DNA from: a virus
IMG/VR virus record: IMGVR_UViG_3300045988_144812
Coordinates: 64,001-128,000 of that record
DNA length: 64,000 nucleotides
Strand: one strand, 5' to 3'
A program made the position numbers and the translations under genes. Positions 5,262 to 50,080 of this stretch are shown piece by piece (position 1 is the stretch's first letter; each line of letters begins with the position of its first letter). A model generated the notes under the pieces. That model saw only the letters and a list, made by a program, of their open reading frames with translations, ran no database searches and was not told the DNA's origin.

Positions 5262-5735
5262 ATGTTGAACAATATTCTGAAATTTGTTATTGGTGGTGCA
5301 GTAGTAGTTGGCGTAATCGCTGCTATCGATGCAGTGAAAGAAGCCAACGAAGCTGCTAAAAAAGCAGCAGATGCAAAAGTCGATGCGGAGTTACGCCGCG
5401 TCGAGCGAGCAATCGATGCAGAGTTTAAACGGACTCAAGAAGAGTTCGTTAAAGCTCGAGAAGAGTTGGATCCAACGATCCACTCAATCAGTGAAGACTA
5501 CGCGAAAGCGTGTCTTCGCCAGTACGGCATGGTACTCTCCATGCTAAAAGCCAGCCCAGATAACGAGATCGTTCTGGGTATGGCCGCAGAGCGCCGTCGC
5601 AATCTGTTCGAAGTCCAACGCGACTTCGCAGTGCGCTTTGCAAATACTGGCCTCGAGTCAGTAGACCTCGCAAGAGGTTACACCGATCAGGAAGTGATCG
5701 ATTTGGTTAAGCGTGAGTTGGCAGCTCGTGCTTAA
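5262..5735 (+). CDS. membrane-anchored Ala/Glu-rich coiled-coil protein
   Basis: N-terminal hydrophobic helix FVIGGAVVVGVIAAI. Own promoter, RBS and terminator. Visibly G+C-richer than its neighbours. Confidence 0.7.
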   Translation: MLNNILKFVIGGAVVVGVIAAIDAVKEANEAAKKAADAKVDAELRRVERAIDAEFKRTQEEFVKAREELDPTIHSISEDYAKACLRQYGMVLSMLKASPDNEIVLGMAAERRRNLFEVQRDFAVRFANTGLESVDLARGYTDQEVIDLVKRELAARA

Positions 5736-5744
5736 TTAACAACG

Positions 5745-5775
5745 CCCTAGTACCAATAGTGGTACTAGGGTTTTC
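5745..5775 (+). terminator. intrinsic terminator
   Basis: CCCTAGTACC/GGTACTAGGG followed by TTTT. Confidence 0.7.
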
Positions 5776-5804
5776 TATTCTAACTTTGTAAAAGGAATTG
5801 TATC

Positions 5805-20084: not shown

Positions 20085-20168
20085 TGGTGGAGGGAGTAGG
20101 ATTCGAACCTACGAACCTTTCGGGGCGGATTTACAGTCCGCTGGATTTAACCACTCTCCAATCCCTCC
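20085..20168 (-). tRNA. tRNA-Tyr (anticodon GTA), class II with a long variable arm, CCA encoded
   Basis: Cloverleaf built by hand. Acceptor GGAGGGA/TCCCTCC. Anticodon stem GCGGA/TCCGC with loop CTGTAAA. T arm GTAGG-TTCGAAT-CCTAC. 3-bp D stem. Confidence 0.9.
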
Positions 20169-23272: not shown

Positions 23273-23655
23273 ATGTATGATGTTTTTGGATAATGTTTAA
23301 ATGTTTGTGTCAAACGTTTGGATCGGGATAAAATGAACAGTCCTGAAGAAATGGCTAGATACTATAAACGTCTAGATATTACCTTAGCTACTTTAAAGAT
23401 GTAACTTTAGATTCGAAAAGTAATGAAAATGGTGATCATGAAATCATTCTCACTTGCGAGGAAGACTTTTACGATTCACTAAAAGTAAATGGTGAACTTT
23501 ACTTCAGTAAAGAACGTCCTTACTTAAAAATAAATACTAATTACTGTCTCATCAGTATCGATGGTAATATCTTTACTACTGATGATCGTGATGAATGTGT
23601 TAAGGCGCATTTATCTCAACGACAATATCTCTTGAAAAAGCTTATTGGTAATTAA
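23273..23655 (+). pseudogene. disrupted gene: in-frame TAA, then a -1 frame change at T_TTA_AAG
   Basis: A perfect leader/RBS (ACTTGTAAAGGA) is followed by ATG 23273 and a TAA at 23291. The same frame restarts at ATG 23333 and stops at 23402. The -1 frame is open from 23392 to 23655 (87 codons) with no in-frame ATG. Confidence 0.5.
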
Positions 23656-23666
23656 GTTTAAATTAA

Positions 23667-23702
23667 ATACTACTACCCTAAAAAGGTAGTAGTATTTTTT
23701 TT
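23667..23702. terminator. hairpin terminator, possibly bidirectional
   Basis: ATACTACTACC/GGTAGTAGTAT, with T8 on the + side and a U-rich tract on the - side. Confidence 0.7.
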
Positions 23703-24600
23703 GATTTAAATTCGACATATTTCGTTTCCACCACTACCGACCACCTCCCCTACCCCGCCGCCTTTCGACGACGAGGCAGGATCAACAGTAGCCGGCCCAA
23801 GAATGAACTTCAAGCTTTCGCCATCTGTCCTCCTCGGTATAAAGACCTTCAGTATTCACCTTGCATCAGCACAGCGTTAGCCGTTAACATCAGTTTAGTT
23901 TCAACCTAAGCCTTCTGACAAGTCCCGTCTGCACCGAAGCGCCTAACAGTCCCTGCAGAGAATGCACGCGCACCCTCAAGTCCTGACCTTGCATAGCAAC
24001 CGCACAGCTCGACCAAGTAAAGTGACGACTAAAAGCCGCCTATCTCTCGATACCCAGCTCCAAAAGGAACTCGTAAGCTCAAAAGACTCTCGAAAATCAA
24101 TTCAAATATCCAAATCAAAAAGACATGAACACCTAAACAGATAATCAAGAATCTTTTGGATTACGCAATGAACATTATCTCCTTGCGGAAACAACATCCA
24201 AAGGGATACGAGAAACAGACTACTTCTAGCTGAAACCCTACCTAGCCGAACCGGATAGACCGTATAGCGGACTCTCTTGGGATATAACGCACCTCTCTAC
24301 AGTTCGTGCCGTAAGCCAGTGTTTCCACTAACCTACCCGCCTACTAAGCCAGACGAGGTACCGCCTGTTCGCCCTGGTGCATTACTACACAGGTTCAACT
24401 CTTACGAGCCGAAAAGCTGGAGGGAAGCCATTTCTCAGACTTGTCGCAGACATGATCGAACGATAACAATAGTATCTCACCTCTTAAAAGAAGTTCAACA
24501 CACTGCTAACAGCGCATACATTTTTACATTAGCCAGAAAAGCCTAGATTAAAACCAAACCAACATCAACGACCACAGCCATACCAATTACAAAGCAAACA
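23703..24600 (-). ncRNA. candidate large structured non-coding RNA (family not recognised)
   Basis: G+C-rich and strongly C>G on the + strand, with no credible ORF. Several hairpins need G-U pairs and so form only in minus-strand RNA; they have GAAA, GCAA and UUCG loops. The boundaries are approximate. Confidence 0.45.
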
Positions 24601-24879
24601 CTAAAAGTCTAAATACCAAGGAATCTTAATAGGATCCATACCTTAGATAGGATAGTTTTACATCGTATTTACGAATACTAACCTATCTGTTAAGAGGTAT
24701 AGGTCTAGCTAAAATAGCTAATTAAACTTATACAAAAAATGCCTGTATAAGCCTAACTATCTAAATCAACCAAACTTAATAAACTTTCTATTCTTAGTTA
24801 AAAACAATAGTAAAAAAGTAGATAAAAAAGAAAATATAGAAGTAATGAAAAGTTTAAAAAGTATTGTTAGAAGTATTGA

Positions 24880-24946
24880 TTTTGTAGTTATTATTAAGAT
24901 TATTATTAGTATATTTGTATTTAGATTTATTATTAGTATTATTAGT
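24880..24946. repeat. left arm of a perfect 67-bp inverted repeat
   Basis: TTTTGTAGTTATTATTAAGATTATTATTAGTATATTTGTATTTAGATTTATTATTAGTATTATTAGT is the exact reverse complement of 26047-26113. Confidence 0.95.
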
Positions 24947-25008
24947 TTTTGTAGTTAGTTGTAGTTGTAGTTTTTGTTGTAGATAGTAGTTGTAGTTTGG
25001 AGATAAGT
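24947..25008. repeat. cluster of TTGTAG(T/A) short direct repeats
   Basis: TTTGTAGTTAGTTGTAGTTGTAGTTTTTGTTGTAGATAGTAGTTGTAGTTTGG lies directly inside the left IR arm. Confidence 0.8.
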
Positions 25009-25135
25009 TCTCTAGATTTTACTCTTCATAATAGAGTAGTAACTTAAGAAAATCACTACTCTATTATAAAGACTGAAACTACTTCTTCATATACACCTAG
25101 TAACTGAAATATTTTTTCAAGATGTTAGAAAAAGA

Positions 25136-25177
25136 ACCAGTCTATACGACTCCCCCACGAAGTGAGTATAGACTGGT
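25136..25177. other. 12-bp hairpin with a C-rich 18-nt loop
   Basis: ACCAGTCTATAC ... GTATAGACTGGT. Confidence 0.7.
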
Positions 25178-25700
25178 GGAGTTTAACATGCGAAAATAGG
25201 AAAATTCGAAAAGAATAGAATTTAGCTGGATTGGAAACAGCTTAACTTTGTCTTTTCATACAGAGTACCATTCTGAAAATTATCTCTTATCTTATCATCG
25301 ATGTTTATACAAACTGTCTAATAACACTAATGGATTAATAGTTTTAAAATTAGTATTTTGTAAATTTGTTAAAAATGGAATAGTGTTTAAATGGCTCTAG
25401 AATGCTCTAGGATTGATTTTCTTTGTTAAGTAAGGACATTTATCATCCTGACTATTTAATCCCTCTAAAATCGCTTCTATTGGCTTGTAATCGATATTGG
25501 TGTATAATTGCTAGTATAGCGATTTATAGTTCTTGATTATAGAACTACATCTGGATGTATTGGTGTATTAAAACCATCTTAGCCTATCTAACGTAGTGGG
25601 TGATATTACACAATGGTATTGTATTTGCTCTAGCATCATTTAGTCCTTTTGTGTAAACTAGGATTTATTGGCTTTGGTATTAAACACTCTAGATTCATCT

Positions 25701-25808
25701 TGCGCTGCGCTACTCTCACTCTGGTTATTTATCACCTACTGTCTAATTGGGTAATGCGCTGCGCTATACTAACTTTGGTGTTTGTTACCTACTGAAATAG
25801 TCTAGTGA
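25701..25808. repeat. two imperfect tandem ~54-bp units, each starting TGCGCTGCGCTA
   Basis: Unit 1 is 25701-25754 and unit 2 is 25755-25808. They share TGCGCTGCGCTA and ...ACCTACTG. Confidence 0.75.
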
Positions 25809-26046
25809 TATTTTACAATGACTGAATCGAGAACGGATATAGTTTGTCTTGAGATAGTGTTTAAATGGTTTTAAATGAGTTCTCGCTATTCAGGGATAAA
25901 TTTGCTTAAAGTAAAAGTATTTAAATTACGTAGTAATTTAAATACATATCCTTAGAGATTTTAAAACTAATTAATATAAATATTAATTAGTAATAGTTAA
26001 TAAGTAATATCTATCTATATTACTAAAGTAATATATCTAGATATTT

Positions 26047-38407: not shown

Positions 38408-39175
38408 ATGGAATTAGGTGAAAAAACAAAACCAATGAAGTTCTCTGTATTTAATCAGACCCCTAATGACGCTACTAAAGAACAAATGTTCTTAGGCCAG
38501 TCTATTAACTTACAGCGATACGATAAGTCTAAATACCAGACTTATAATGATTTGTCAGAAAAACAAAAATCATTCTTCTGGCGACCTGAAGAAGTAGACT
38601 TGTCTAAAGACCGTATCGATTTTGAAGGTTTACCAGAAAATGAGAAACACATTTTTCTACGTAATCTGGATTATCAATCACTTTTGGATTCGATTCAAGG
38701 AAGAAGTCCGGCTATTGCATTTCTTCCTCTAATTTCTATTCCTGAATTAGAGAACTGGACAATTGCTTGGGATTTCTTTGAATCAATTCACTCTTACTCT
38801 TATACGTATATCATGCGTAATGTATTAATTGATCCTAGTGAAGAGTTTGATAATATTGTAGTAAATGAAGAAATTAAGAAACGAGCAAGAGCGATTTCTC
38901 AATACTACGATGACTTGATTATGTATAGCCAATATTATAATCTTTTTGGAGAAGGAGTTTTTGAAGTTAATAAACAAGCAAAAGATTATAAAATGTATTT
39001 TCATCATCGTATTGAGATTAGCAAACGAGAACTGATGAAAAAGCTTTATCTTTGTATGTTCGTAGTGAATGTACTTGAAGCCATTCGTTTTTATGTATCG
39101 TTTGCATGTAGTTTTAGTTTTGCTGAACGTAAACTCATGGAAGGTAATGCCAAGATCATTAAACTTATTGCCCGT
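38408..39175 (+). CDS. nrdB: ribonucleotide reductase small subunit, exon 1
   Basis: [23 protein letters not shown] and [13 protein letters not shown] motifs. The reading frame leaves RNR-like sequence after ...KLIAR. Confidence 0.85.
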
Positions 39176-39481
39176 AAACTTCGTTGCGGCTTCTACCAGT
39201 GATGGTAGTCGAATAACTCTGTTAAACGGGGAAACTCTAATATAGACAATCCCGTAGTAAAGACGTTTAAATTATATTAGTATAATTTAAACTGACAAAC
39301 TCTAACGACTATCGAAATCCTAATTATTAGAGAGAGTAGAGTAGTGGACAATCGTTTAGTTCGCCAAACGCAGAGGGTCTGTATTAATTACAGATCATGA
39401 TATAGTCTGACCCCAGTAGTGATATTGGGCGGGTGTCTTAAGCACACCGGCTACGATTAACGACCGTAGTGGACAGCTTCG
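39176..39481 (+). ncRNA. group I intron (no internal ORF) in nrdB
   Basis: Joining 39175 to 39482 restores in-frame ...IAR|DEALH.... Exon 1 ends in T and the intron ends in G. A P1 pairing (CCGU with GCGG) is possible. Confidence 0.75.
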
Positions 39482-45765: not shown

Positions 45766-47571
45766 TTAGATTTTACAAGCACCACCAGCACAACCATCAT
45801 CCAGACTATCTTGAGTATCATTAGATCCATCGTTTGTATGGTGATAGTACAATGTTTTAATACCATACTTATACGCAATCAACAATTCCTTCAATAGTTC
45901 TTTCATAGGTACTTTGCCATTAGGATAATTGATAGGATTATAACGAGTATTCGTAGAAATAGATTGATCTACAAATTTTTGCATAATCGCTACTAATTTT
46001 AACATTCCGATATTGTTACTGTCGTACCACAAGTATTCGTAACTAGAATCTAAATTCTTATAATCAGGAACGACTTGTTTTAAAATACCATCTTTAGAAG
46101 CTTTAATCGTAATAGGACCACGAGGTAAATCAATACCATTAGTGGCATTACTTACTTGACTACTGCTTTCAGAAGGCATTAGACTAGTCAGCGTAGCATT
46201 ACGTAAACCATATTGGACAATATCCTTACGCAAGCTTTCCCAATCTAATTTATATTCAAACGAAGCATATTCGTCGATAGACTTTTTATAAGTGTCTATT
46301 GGTAAAACGCCTTTAGAATATTTAGTGTTTTCAAACGCACCACACTTACCTTTTTCTTTGGCTAATTGTACTGATGATTTTAATGCATAGTACTGAATAG
46401 CCTCGAATAATTCATGAGTCATCTGATGACCACTGCTATTACTATACCGAGCACCATTCTTAGCTAAGTAATAAGCGTAGTTAATCACACCAATACCTAA
46501 TGGACGATACTTATCTACAGAATTACGAGCTGCTTTAACAGGATAGTTTTGATAGTCTAATACAGAATCAAGAGCACGTACAATTAAGTCCATAGACTCT
46601 TCAATCTCTTCAAGATTATCTTTATCCACTGTACCCAGATTCAAAGCACCTAGAGTGCACAAAGCAATTTCACCTTCTTCATCAGAAATATTGTTTAATG
46701 GCTTGATAGGTAAACCAATTTCCATGCAGTTACCAGTCATGATGTTGTTAAATACAACAGAGTTATTTTTTGGTTCAAATACACAGAATGTATCGTGTTT
46801 ACCATCTAACTTTGTAACTGATTTTACAATAGACTGGTCTACTTTAATAATACCTAATTGAGTCGATGGGGTATTCCATTTAGACAGTTTCACACCATGA
46901 ACTAATTCTTTAGTAGGTATACGAGTACCATCTTCAAGAATCCATTTATGTTCACTAGTACAATCTAAATAACGACCATCTACTAATTCTACACGATATA
47001 AATCTTGATCAGTATTTGTTTTAACAAACTCAATACCTTCAGACCATTCAAAACCATTCCAGATAGTGAATTTCTCACCAATATAATCGCCAATCTTAAC
47101 CATGCCTTTATCAGTTAATACTTCGGTATCTCCTGAAACACACAAGTTACTGGTATAAATAGTTGCTTCTTTTTCAATAAATGAAGAATGGGTATTCATG
47201 TGGTCAGTATTCATGATGTAAATACGACCAGTATTAGCACGCTCTGACATCAACAATGTAAACAATTCAGTAGCTTTAATAGTCTTCTTAGGAATAAGAG
47301 GATTTGCTTCAGCTTCTAAATAAAGTTTTTCAAATAACTCTTGGTCGTTAAAGTAAGCATCGTATAAACCCTCTACAGAATGAGGTGACAATAAAGTAAT
47401 GTCTTTATCTTCAATCAGACGCTGATACATTAATTTATTAATCTGCACACCGTAATCCAATTGGCGAATACGGTTGTCTTCTACACCACGGTTATTTTTT
47501 AATACCAGTAATGATTCTACTTCTAAATGCCAGATAGGGTAAAATAAAGTTGCAGCACCACCACGAATCCC
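45766..47571 (-). CDS. nrdA: ribonucleotide reductase large subunit, exon 2 (contains the mini-intein)
   Basis: GIRGGAATLFYPIWHLEVESLLVLKNNRG ... GACKI is colinear with E. coli NrdA, apart from a 138-aa insertion at SNL|C. Confidence 0.9.
   Translation of the reverse strand, partial: GIRGGAATLFYPIWHLEVESLLVLKNNRGVEDNRIRQLDYGVQINKLMYQRLIEDKDITLLSPHSVEGLYDAYFNDQELFEKLYLEAEANPLIPKKTIKATELFTLLMSERANTGRIYIMNTDHMNTHSSFIEKEATIYTSNLCVSGDTEVLTDKGMVKIGDYIGEKFTIWNGFEWSEGIEFVKTNTDQDLYRVELVDGRYLDCTSEHKWILEDGTRIPTKELVHGVKLSKWNTPSTQLGIIKVDQSIVKSVTKLDGKHDTFCVFEPKNNSVVFNNIMTGNCMEIGLPIKPLNNISDEEGEIALCTLGALNLGTVDKDNLEEIEESMDLIVRALDSVLDYQNYPVKAARNSVDKYRPLGIGVINYAYYLAKNGARYSNSSGHQMTHELFEAIQYYALKSSVQLAKEKGKCGAFENTKYSKGVLPIDTYKKSIDEYASFEYKLDWESLRKDIVQYGLRNATLTSLMPSESSSQVSNATNGIDLPRGPITIKASKDGILKQVVPDYKNLDSSYEYLWYDSNNIGMLKLVAIMQKFVDQSISTNTRYNPINYPNGKVPMKELLKELLIAYKYGIKTLYYHHTNDGSNDTQDSLDDGCAGGACKI
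46729..47142 (-). mobile_element. mini-intein (138 aa, no endonuclease domain) at the catalytic Cys of NrdA
   Basis: Begins CVSGDTEVL, has TSEH (block B), and ends ...FNNIMTGN followed by C. Removing it restores SNLCMEIGLP (E. coli SNLCLEIALP). Confidence 0.8.
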
Positions 47572-47929
47572 CAAATACCTTCAATACGAGTCGTTAATTC
47601 GTATTCTACCAATTAAGATAGCTCTATGTCACCATAGACGTTGAGACTATATCTTCTTCTCCAGCATTACCTGGTAAGATTCCAAACATCAGGAAACTAC
47701 ATAGAGGATTACATTAATCCACTGTAGTAGTCGCTCTATTTCCCCAAACTCCGTTACAGAGACCTCACTTGAGTGGTACGTCTTTCGACTAGTCGTTGAA
47801 CCTTCCCTAGATGTATTTATATACAATTAGGTATTGGCTGCTGATTGTCTATACTTTAATATAGATTTCCCAGCAATTAAGAGCGATATTTTTAACTCTG
47901 TATTTCTACAGAGCTGGGCAGGATTGTTT
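47572..47929 (-). ncRNA. group I intron (no homing endonuclease ORF) in nrdA
   Basis: Joining 47930 to 47571 restores ...KSCSQG|GIRGGAAT. Exon 1 ends in U and the intron ends in G. A P1 pairing (GGGU with GCCC) is possible. Contains GNRA hairpins. Confidence 0.75.
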
Positions 47930-50080
47930 ACCCTGGGAACATGATTTAACTGCAGCTTGAAACATTTTCCAAAATGGAATAACGCCAGTATGGATAGCTT
48001 CACCTTTACGAATTTCACTACCTAATGCACGAATACGACCACCATTAATACCAATTCCAGCACGTTGAGAAATATACTTAACAATAGAGGAAGTAGCTGC
48101 ATTAATACTATCCAGACTATCGTCACAATCAATTACAGTGCAGTTATGTACTCCGATACTACCGGCAGTAAATGAATGTTCATTTTCTACTTCGATATCG
48201 TAAACCATCGGGTTAGTCTCATTAAGTAAATGAATGGCTAAGGTAACTTTAGAGAAACAATAACCATCTTTAAAGACGACATTATTTCTTATATACTTAG
48301 AATGTTCTTCAGATCCAGGAACTGTAACCATTACTGAACTTTCTAAATAATTCGCGTATCTTGCTTCATCATTACCTAAATATTCTTTTATAAGACTTAC
48401 ATTAGAACCGATTGAGAAGAATATTAAGTAACTTACCTCTCTAGTAATAACCTCAGAAATTGCTCCATTTGCTCTTACAACAGGGACTTGTTTACCAGGT
48501 TCTCTGAATGAGACACTGGGTTTTAATCCCAAACGTAGAGATATTTCAGTAAGTTGTTTAGATAGGAATTTATTACTTAGGCTTATAGTGATTCCTCTAC
48601 CGTCTAAAAAACCATCGGTTTCAATAACACCTAGCAACAAACTTAATTGTTTGTCGTGTTCCGAATTCATTACTTCTTTACTGATTTTCTTCTTATTGAA
48701 ACCAGTACCGAGATGATAAAGAATGAATTCTTTAAATACGTAGGAGTGTACTGATACTTTGCAACTATGGTCGTTGTCGTTATAGTTAACAGAACAATTT
48801 AAACCGAAGTTATCTTTTATAGTGTTAACTATAAATTCGATCTTATGCTTATCTTTAGCATTCATGGTAAACGCCACACAATGCACATTTTTATCACAAT
48901 GACCGTTTCCAATATACATACCCATTAATCTAAATATATCGTTATTTAAAACAATATCATTTTTAACAGGTTTTATCTTATCATCGTACTCACCCGACCT
49001 AACACGTACGTCTGATGTGGTTTTACGAATATAGCCATCATCACAAAGAGTATATCTTGGATTGTTTACATAATCGATCATTCTAATATTAGTGAATGGA
49101 ATGATTTCATTATTAAAAGGAATAGAAACATAATCACCTATTTTAATATCTTTAGCTTCCACCCATTTAGGCTCTGACTCACCTTTAGGCAAGGTCCAAA
49201 CAAGATGGTCTTCTGTAGACAAGAAATCATTTCGATGACTTAATGTCGATTTTAACTTGATGAAATTTTCACCAGTATATTGTCGGCATGTAAGTGTTTT
49301 TACAGGAGAGAACGACCCTTCCTTAGTTAAAACCATATCTCCAACATTTACATCTTCGATATATTTGTAACCTTCGCTAGTAAGTACTTGCTGGTCAGCA
49401 GGGAAACAACTACTAAACTGACGAGTAGGTGTACGTACACCTGCCATGATTGGAGTAGGCAATGAAATCTTAAACAATGACAAAGCATCGTAGAATTTCT
49501 TAATATATCCTAAACGAGTTTCTTTAGGGTAGTCAGCAAACAAACAAGTAGGAATTAAAACAAAAGCTACTTGAGGAGATTCGTACACTCGTTTAGTCAC
49601 TCGGTTTTGCACCAAGTATTTACTTTCCATTTGTTTAATACCGGCATAAGCGAAATTTAAATCTCGGGTATGGTCTACAAAGGACTCAATGGCATTAATT
49701 TCTTCCTCGGTGTATTTCTCTAAAATCTCTTTATCGTAAACACCTTTTTCAATCATTGACTGAATATGTTTATATAATCGAGTAGGTACGTATTCACCAT
49801 AAGCAATCTTACGAATATGGAACAGTGCTAAACGCGCAGCCATGTACTGATAATCGGGATATTCTGTAGAGATTAAATCAGCAGCAGATTTTACCAATGT
49901 TTCATGGATATCGGTAGTTGAGATACCATTATAGAATTGAATATGACTATTGATTTCTACTTGGGAACTAGAAACATCTAAACATTCAGCAGCCCATTCT
50001 ACTACACGGTGAATTTTAGCAATATCCAATGGTTCAAAATGGCCATCGCGTTTCTTTACTTTAATTTTTTGTTCAGTCAT
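47930..50080 (-). CDS. nrdA: ribonucleotide reductase large subunit, exon 1 (contains the LAGLIDADG intein)
   Basis: ATP-cone N-terminus, then PTPIMAGVRTPTRQFSS|C ... C|TVIDCDDSLDSINA...KSCSQG, colinear with E. coli NrdA. Confidence 0.9.
48143..49408 (-). mobile_element. intein (422 aa) with a LAGLIDADG-type endonuclease domain
   Basis: Begins CFPADQQVLT, has TEDH (block B), LMGMYIGNGH and LLLGVIETDGFLDG, and ends YDIEVENEHSFTAGSIGVHN followed by C. It sits at the position of E. coli Cys225. Confidence 0.85.

Follow-up and report, generated by a model that had tools for sequence, protein, structure and literature searches.

Within the 64,000-nt stretch of viral DNA analyzed here (hereafter, the window), the minus strand from ~24622 to ~23703 very probably carries a functional, stand-alone gene for a structured non-coding RNA (ncRNA) of ~0.92 kb. 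The gene body (23703-24622, minus strand, about 920 nt) is recognized by the z-score of its fold (z = -12.9), by a conservation boundary, and by a consensus structure of 350 pairs that is supported by covariation. The initial annotation had proposed a structured RNA of ~0.9 kb on the minus strand of this block, and that reading is supported by the fold, the covariation, the lack of a conserved open reading frame (ORF), and the conservation among related phages. Judging from the sequences, the genomes that carry the RNA belong to a clade of uncultured, phiKZ-like jumbo phages of ~250 kb, and the RNA appears so far to be a family specific to that one clade.

Strand-specific folding and coding capacity of the block

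The RNA block is distinguished from its surroundings by base composition: the G+C content of 23703-24620 is 46%, compared to 34% over the whole 64-kb window, and the GC skew of the plus strand lies between -0.16 and -0.31 throughout the block. The elevated G+C content had been noted in the initial annotation, and a recount reproduced its base counts exactly (24 C and 6 G in 23701-23760; 22 C and 12 G in 23941-24000). An octamer reported there as repeated, ACCTTGCA, is found twice, at 23858 and 23986 only; no significance is attached to it.

Folded as RNA, the minus strand from 24620 to 23703 reaches -416.8 kcal/mol, compared to -283 +/- 10 kcal/mol for dinucleotide shuffles (z = -12.9), whereas the plus strand reaches -168.9, compared to -175 +/- 7 for its shuffles (z = +0.9). 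Thus, the energy is 13 standard deviations better than that of the shuffled controls, on the minus strand only, and L020, the homologue that has diverged furthest, shows the same asymmetry (RNA strand, z = -21.2; opposite strand, z = -0.8). The minimum-energy fold contains 359 pairs, i.e., 135 G-C, 127 A-U and 97 G-U; the G-U share of pairs is ~26%. The asymmetry arises because each G-U pair corresponds to a C-A mismatch on the opposite strand, and the dependence on G-U pairs claimed at the outset is thereby confirmed. When the entire 64 kb was scanned with a sliding window of 300 nt, the eight largest differences in folding in favor of the minus strand all fell in the RNA block. With DNA energy parameters, the z-score of the minus strand is only -2.9, and a DNA-structure hypothesis was rejected on account of this weak fold. 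True DNA inverted repeats make the two strands of the adjoining region 24621-26200 fold to the same degree (z about -13 to -14.5). Strand-asymmetric folding combined with local enrichment in G+C can flag genes of this kind in raw sequence of AT-rich phages.

No frame of the block resembles a coding sequence, as the initial annotation had stated. The longest ORF on the minus strand is at most 39 aa, the plus strand contains only ORFs of 60 and 89 aa, and a Pfam search with the block ORFs (31 aa on the minus strand; 60 and 89 aa on the plus strand) yielded no match. In relatives, the 89-aa ORF is frameshifted by indels, and the 31-aa ORF, which has an SD-like motif upstream, has lost its ATG in four lineages. 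A protein-coding reading was rejected on these grounds (no conserved ORF, no Pfam match, start codon lost in relatives). Conventional ORFs are absent over ~3.4 kb (about 23.25-26.75 kb) between plus-strand phage genes, and the block occupies the left end of this gap; no interrupted gene was found on the minus strand around it.

Conservation and consensus structure

Related loci were reached through the flanking proteins and an exact 19-mer, in IMG/VR and in ENA metagenome assemblies. The same locus is present on related phage contigs of 244-260 kb, and on some shorter ones; their sources are IMG and MGnify assemblies, one of them an HMP sample. These provided 12 further distinct homologues, 86-99% identical to the RNA of the window, so that the alignment comprised 13 distinct versions of the RNA region, including that of the window itself; the homologues represent about three sub-lineages. 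The core enclosed by the closing stem (about 23920-24531) has an identity of at least 91% in every homologue, and of 91.5% in the most divergent one. For the 3' strand of the closing stem (23831-23919), identity to this most divergent homologue is 72-74%, with the pairing kept. On the same contigs, identity is 66-76% for the flanking coding DNA and 70-73% for the adjacent 278-aa protein. By these comparisons, the RNA block is the best-conserved DNA of its locus, above the neighboring protein genes; part of this high conservation could result from recent exchange between phages.

A conservation boundary lies at about 24618-24625. Upstream of it, the mean column identity is 68%, and L020 is essentially unalignable upstream of about 24620. 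Downstream, conservation of the RNA strand ends at an A-tract just before a terminator hairpin. Because conservation drops on both sides, the unit is taken to extend from about 24622 to 23703, plus the terminator. The predicted 5' end of the RNA has the sequence UCCUUGGUAUUU and lies at or just upstream of 24622.

The consensus calculated with RNAalifold from the 13 versions contains 350 pairs in 23-27 helices, and standard pairs occupy 99.8% of the 4535 sequence-by-pair cells. Both partners have changed in 17 pairs, compared to 7.9 +/- 1.5 when the 3' partners were shuffled (none of the 500 shuffles reached 17), although these 17 covarying pairs represent few independent events, the alignment being shallow, with about three sub-lineages. 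In a second control, in which the partner was slid by 1-3 columns, there were 1-6 two-sided changes. A further 66 pairs have changed on one side only, with a standard pair retained. The compensatory changes occur in eight helices and include GC to AU and CG to GC; covarying pairs belong to the closing stem, to helices within branch B, to a single hairpin of branch A, and to the 3' domain. The GNRA motif occupies 6 of the 12 hairpin loops, and in three of these only the N position varies: GUAA/GAAA/GCAA at 24402-24405, GCAA/GAAA at 24183-24186, and GAAA/GCAA at 23816-23819. Variation of this kind is a signature of RNA, as opposed to DNA or protein. Covariation at related loci, which the initial annotation had named as a check of the proposed RNA, was thus observed both as compensatory changes in eight helices and as N-only variation of GNRA loops. 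These results show that selection maintains the fold through compensatory and wobble-compatible substitutions. It should be noted that the near-invariant core yields almost no covariation, so that its helices rest mainly on energy, and that the single-sequence minimum-energy fold and the consensus differ in detail within the core. No pseudoknots were identified in the RNA, and no palindromic kissing-loop candidate was evident in its hairpin loops.

The dominant feature of the structure is long-range pairing: the ~90 nt at the 5' end (closing stem 5' strand, 24532-24622, minus strand) pair with a segment ~700 nt downstream (closing stem 3' strand, 23831-23919, minus strand). The initial annotation had placed local tetraloop hairpins in the foreground, and this emphasis did not hold. 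The closing stem (helices 1 and 2) consists of 83 bp, including 25 G-U pairs and 10 pairs with two-sided changes; in L020, matched deletions of 2 nt occur in both of its strands. Variation is nearly absent from the enclosed, branched core of ~600 nt, whether in loops, in junctions or in helices. Branch A of the core (24358-24519, minus strand; consensus helices 3-8) is a multi-helix domain with GNRA loops at 24402-24405 (G[U/A/C]AA) and 24382-24385 (GUAA); its sequence is nearly invariant, and its helices are supported mainly by energy. Branch B (23924-24357, minus strand; consensus helices 9-18) consists of quasi-coaxial long helices of 17, 25, 44 and 38 bp with side hairpins, has GNRA loops at 24322-24325 and 24183-24186, and contains the covarying pairs 277:705, 278:704, 303:308 and 341:667. 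A helix run of 37 bp in the RNA is continuous. The 3' domain, which lies outside the closing stem (23726-23830, minus strand; helices 19-23), comprises a small hairpin (loop G[A/C]AA, 23816-23819) and a long G-rich/C-rich hairpin (loop GAAA, 23763-23766), with covarying pairs 848:892 (CG/GC) and 868:875 (UA/CG).

Six local hairpins had been named from the sequence alone. Four of them are part of the covariation-supported consensus as local hairpins, three in a longer form: 23753-23776 extends to 23748-23781 (GAAA loop), 24316-24331 to 24311-24336 (GAAA loop), and 24179-24190 to 24169-24200 (GCAA/GAAA loop), and the fourth is 24056-24071. The other two are better explained as strands of long-range helices. 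The segment 23931-23942, with its UUCG, is flanked by the covarying pairs 277:705 and 278:704, and is more likely one strand of such a helix; the same holds in the consensus for 24024-24040 (GGCGGC/GUCGUC).

The hairpin 23667-23702, at which the unit had been expected to end, is present and is scored as a terminator in a terminator scan. It is a bidirectional intrinsic terminator (both strands; 13 pairs followed by T8 on the plus strand), common to the RNA gene and to the convergent plus-strand gene. The sequence of its stem is not the same in all lineages, and the RNA probably ends at this hairpin. Upstream of the gene, at 24633-24705 (minus strand), a hairpin of variable sequence and conserved structure is found in the window, in L010 and in L020 (z = -7.6 in L020); the transcript may extend far enough in the 5' direction to include it, or it may act as an insulating terminator or as a promoter-proximal element. 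A scan of the minus strand near this hairpin revealed no sigma-70-like promoter, which is unsurprising because the phage encodes its own RNA polymerase subunits.

Distribution and genomic neighborhood

The phage encodes a split RNA polymerase beta subunit of the phiKZ type, an NAD-dependent ligase, and an intron-split ribonucleotide reductase (RNR). Its tail sheath shares only ~30% identity with its counterparts in jumbo phages of Burkholderia and Ralstonia, and no close cultured phage was found. In a blastn search against cultured phages and plasmids, the RNA block had no match, and a single 110-bp segment of RNR was all that matched cultured phages in the 20-kb neighborhood. Exact scans with a 19-mer and a 16-mer (IMG/VR) and with a 20-mer (GTDB genomes) returned the same clade plus chance hits only; the GTDB genomes contained no match to the RNA beyond chance pattern hits in the 20-mer scan. 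Loci L017, L022, L024 and L049-L056 were set aside as chance pattern hits on unrelated contigs (43-67% G+C where measured). A metagenome search anchored on the flanking 278-aa protein likewise led to the same clade only. In distant jumbo phages reached through a DUF7338 neighbor (49-51% identity), there was no nhmmer hit within 10 kb, and no large non-coding gap or comparable fold asymmetry within the same distance.

Around the RNA gene, the proteins encoded are tail-fibre-like, endolysin and unknown ones; a replication protein is not among them, and the neighborhood contains no functional pointer. Several features around the gene were recorded in their own right. An inverted repeat with arms of 145 nt (24802-24946/26047-26192; arms 96% and 79% complementary) brackets a 1.1-kb ORF-free segment adjoining the RNA gene, and at least eight related contigs of ~250 kb begin or end exactly at its arms. 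An invertible segment was considered and rejected, since the three lineages that assemble across the repeat are all collinear with the window; the contig breaks appear to stem from ambiguity in assembly, and are not taken as evidence of DNA inversion or of genome termini. The 12-mer TATTATTAGTAT, with up to one mismatch, has 10 copies in 24901-26597 and one elsewhere in the 64 kb, compared to 2.2 expected for the whole window. The cluster is iteron-like and lies in and around a stretch of 14-25% G+C; it might serve as a replication origin or as a hub for protein binding. On the minus strand, a hairpin with a U-tract at 25140-25180 covaries in L020, an indication of a further unit that is located to the right and transcribed from this strand; just downstream of it on that strand, a conserved hairpin with 29-nt arms is located at 25017-25078. 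The segments 25371-25502 and 25701-25815 are conserved in relatives and may be further non-coding elements. A telomerase-template-like idea, raised by nearby T/G-rich repeats, was dropped: no complementary stretch of the RNA was seen by eye, and the repeats are a variable low-complexity tract. On the other side of the gene, a plus-strand frame at 23365-23657 is open for about 95 codons and offers no start codon of the ATG, GTG or TTG type. Shortly before the common terminator, it is overlapped in a different frame by an ORF of 28 aa (23318-23404). The frame may belong to a gene that is frameshifted, starts in an unusual way, or is decaying.

Elsewhere in the window, a tRNA-Tyr (GTA) with a long variable arm is encoded at 20085-20168 on the minus strand, the strand of the RNA gene and 3.5 kb away from it; there is no tRNA island. 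Group I introns (RF00028) occur at 47622-47991 (minus strand, 85.8 bits) and 39166-39429 (plus strand, 56.9 bits). The former splits the gene for the RNR large subunit into ORFs 45766-47574 and 47906-50080, and an insert at residues ~223-342 of the N-terminal ORF, which matches unrelated phage families, might be an intein or endonuclease. The GC-rich, strongly folding block 5301-5800 was rejected as an ordinary ORF of 157 aa: this ORF (5262-5735, plus strand) has 51% G+C and folds unusually well on both strands, encodes a protein with an N-terminal hydrophobic segment and no family match, has its own terminator, and may be horizontally acquired. A YadA-like trimeric autotransporter adhesin with head, stalk and anchor domains is encoded at 30155-31561 (plus strand), which suggests a Gram-negative host.

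Interpretation and comparison with known large RNAs

The 4227 models of Rfam 15 were compared to the whole window at gathering scores and, with permissive filters, to 23400-25100 at E <= 10. Infernal found no family match in the RNA block, even at E <= 10; in the flanks, miRNA- and sRNA-like hits at this threshold were judged meaningless. As a positive control, the same library did recover the two group I introns and a tRNA in other parts of the window. Neither the GOLLD model (RF01998) nor the ROOL model (RF03087) matched in either scan. The cmscan comparison proposed in the initial annotation thus shows that the RNA is not GOLLD, ROOL, HEARO, a group II intron, RNase P RNA or tmRNA. For a group II intron, there is no Rfam match, the 5' end UCCUUGGUAUUU is not GUGYG, the closing stem is long, and there are no flanking exons; for a group I intron, the matches of RF00028 are those given above, with none in the block. 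RNase P RNA, tmRNA, 6S, SRP RNA and rRNA were also rejected (no Rfam matches; no tmRNA in ARAGORN). A viroid-like or Obelisk rod does not fit a sequence that is collinear within DNA contigs of 244-258 kb in several assemblies and whose RNA strand contains no ORF longer than 39 aa. At about 920 nt and with no conserved ORF, the RNA falls within the informal class of large ornate ncRNAs (>500 nt, non-coding, multi-helix, covarying).

We propose that the product acts through its three-dimensional fold, i.e., as an RNA scaffold, as a component of a ribonucleoprotein (RNP), or as a self-assembling RNA-only particle; its mode of action would be neither coding nor simple antisense pairing. The invariant, branched core with GNRA loops points to a function that requires precise tertiary structure, and not mere duplex formation or antisense pairing, whereas the specific scaffold or particle mechanism is put forward only tentatively. 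The closing stem would resemble a processing stem of the rRNA type, holding the ends together: a variable, covarying stem around a conserved core is the layout of an rRNA precursor, and by this analogy maturation by RNase III at the stem is plausible. The excess of G-U pairs would make the fold strand-specific, leave an antisense transcript unstructured, and keep the DNA from forming a long perfect palindrome; it might also reflect, in part, a C-to-U bias on a heavily transcribed non-template strand. A bolder variant, which we consider rather doubtful, is a giant phage RNA machine whose core would be a ribozyme or RNP subunit, or which would form an RNA-only assembly, serving in host takeover; ribosomes, RNA polymerase or a defence factor might, for instance, be sequestered by it.

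The RNA could alternatively be, in the main, a long double-stranded substrate, either a precursor of small RNAs processed by RNase III, or a decoy or sponge for RNase III or a dsRNA-binding factor. Its elongated, rod-like overall shape and its unusually long, nearly uninterrupted helices (83, 44, 38 and 25 bp, and the continuous run of 37 bp) fit such a role. However, a mere duplex would be free to covary throughout, whereas loops and junctions of the core hardly vary, and neither do its helices; moreover, six GNRA loops are typical of tertiary contacts, and no small-RNA products or targets are known, so we regard this explanation as unlikely. A still less probable reading, quite improbable in our judgment, is that of an origin-associated transcript, in which a G-rich RNA beside the AT-rich, iteron-like region would serve as an R-loop, primer or replication activator. 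ColE1 RNA II and origin transcripts of phages are precedents for RNAs that prime or activate replication. The RNA-like strand is indeed G-rich over a C-rich template (GC skew about -0.3), and the gene adjoins a 2-kb ORF-free region of 14-25% G+C that holds 10 of the 11 copies of TATTATTAGTAT in the window (2.2 expected) and the 145-nt inverted repeat. Nevertheless, the predicted transcription leads away from the AT-rich region and stops at a terminator that separates convergent genes, it is intramolecular pairs and GNRA loops that are under selection and not a hybrid-forming sequence, and none of the genes nearby encodes a replication protein.

Could the covariance models have missed a highly diverged GOLLD, ROOL, OLE, group II intron or RNase P RNA? 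Size, GNRA loops, a phage host, and a same-strand tRNA 3.5 kb away are all compatible with this, but it is very improbable, given that nothing relevant appeared in the 1.7-kb slice at E <= 10 with permissive filters while the controls were found elsewhere, that the RNA starts with UCCUUGGUAUUU and not with GUGYG and lacks flanking exons, and that the long closing stem is unlike those families. Least credible of all is that there is no RNA gene, and that the block is a decaying DNA inverted repeat with a C-to-T bias, a structure of single-stranded DNA, or a dead protein gene. Changes from C to U on one strand keep G-C pairs as G-U and could mimic a dependence on G-U pairs, and true DNA-level inverted repeats do exist in the neighboring region. 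However, a one-way bias cannot give 17 double compensatory changes (GC to AU, CG to GC), nor does this reading agree with the block being the most conserved DNA of the locus, the N-only variation of GNRA loops, the weak fold under DNA parameters, or the lack of ORF conservation and of a protein match. A non-RNA DNA feature is thus essentially excluded.

With a stand-alone structured RNA gene as the preferred reading, the block can be set beside known systems. To our knowledge, only a handful of bacterial and phage ncRNAs above 500 nt have been described (GOLLD, ROOL, OLE, HEARO, raiA, and a few others); those known have been structurally surprising, e.g., RNA-only nanocages or dimers. Our literature search on large ncRNAs of jumbo phages, and a search for the sequence itself, returned nothing relevant. 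The RNA described here is a defined target for structure determination that can be transcribed in vitro, and its locus is a clear genetic target for learning what large RNAs do for phages. The initial annotation had likened the block to phage-associated large RNAs that lie near tRNAs; the RNA is phage-encoded, and the link to tRNAs is weak, with a single tRNA-Tyr 3.5 kb away.

GOLLD, ROOL and OLE are self-assembling RNAs (PMC12286853). GOLLD is a structured ncRNA of phages and prophages, >800 nt long and of unknown function, with conserved and less conserved regions (PMC12286853). The present RNA is also large, phage-encoded, non-coding and supported by covariation; however, it is longer than GOLLD, has an 83-bp closing stem and long helices where GOLLD has many short stems and pseudoknots, is not located by a tRNA island, comes from lytic-type jumbo phages, and does not match the model. 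ROOL, also a large ornate RNA associated with phages, has no known protein partner and is thought to be an RNA-only assembly (PMC12286853); our RNA is about 60% longer, differs in the layout of its secondary structure, and has no match to that model either. With OLE, a large conserved ncRNA with long coaxial helices (PMC12286853), it shares long helices, here quasi-coaxial. It differs from OLE in being phage-encoded and in having no model match. OLE itself is cellular, occurs in extremophilic Firmicutes, and has protein partners dedicated to it. The flanks of an rRNA precursor likewise form a long covarying stem around a far more conserved core, but the core of the present RNA has no similarity to rRNA in Rfam. 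As in 6S RNA and in viroids or Obelisks, the molecule is elongated and largely double-stranded, and G-U pairs make the fold strand-specific; yet it is five times larger than 6S RNA and has no match to the 6S model, and, in contrast to viroids and Obelisks, it is encoded in the DNA of 250-kb phage contigs, is branched, and has no Oblin-like ORF. Its design, a long G-U-rich closing stem around an invariant core, is unlike the known classes of large RNAs, and these comparisons argue for a new family of the GOLLD and ROOL kind that is a member of neither.
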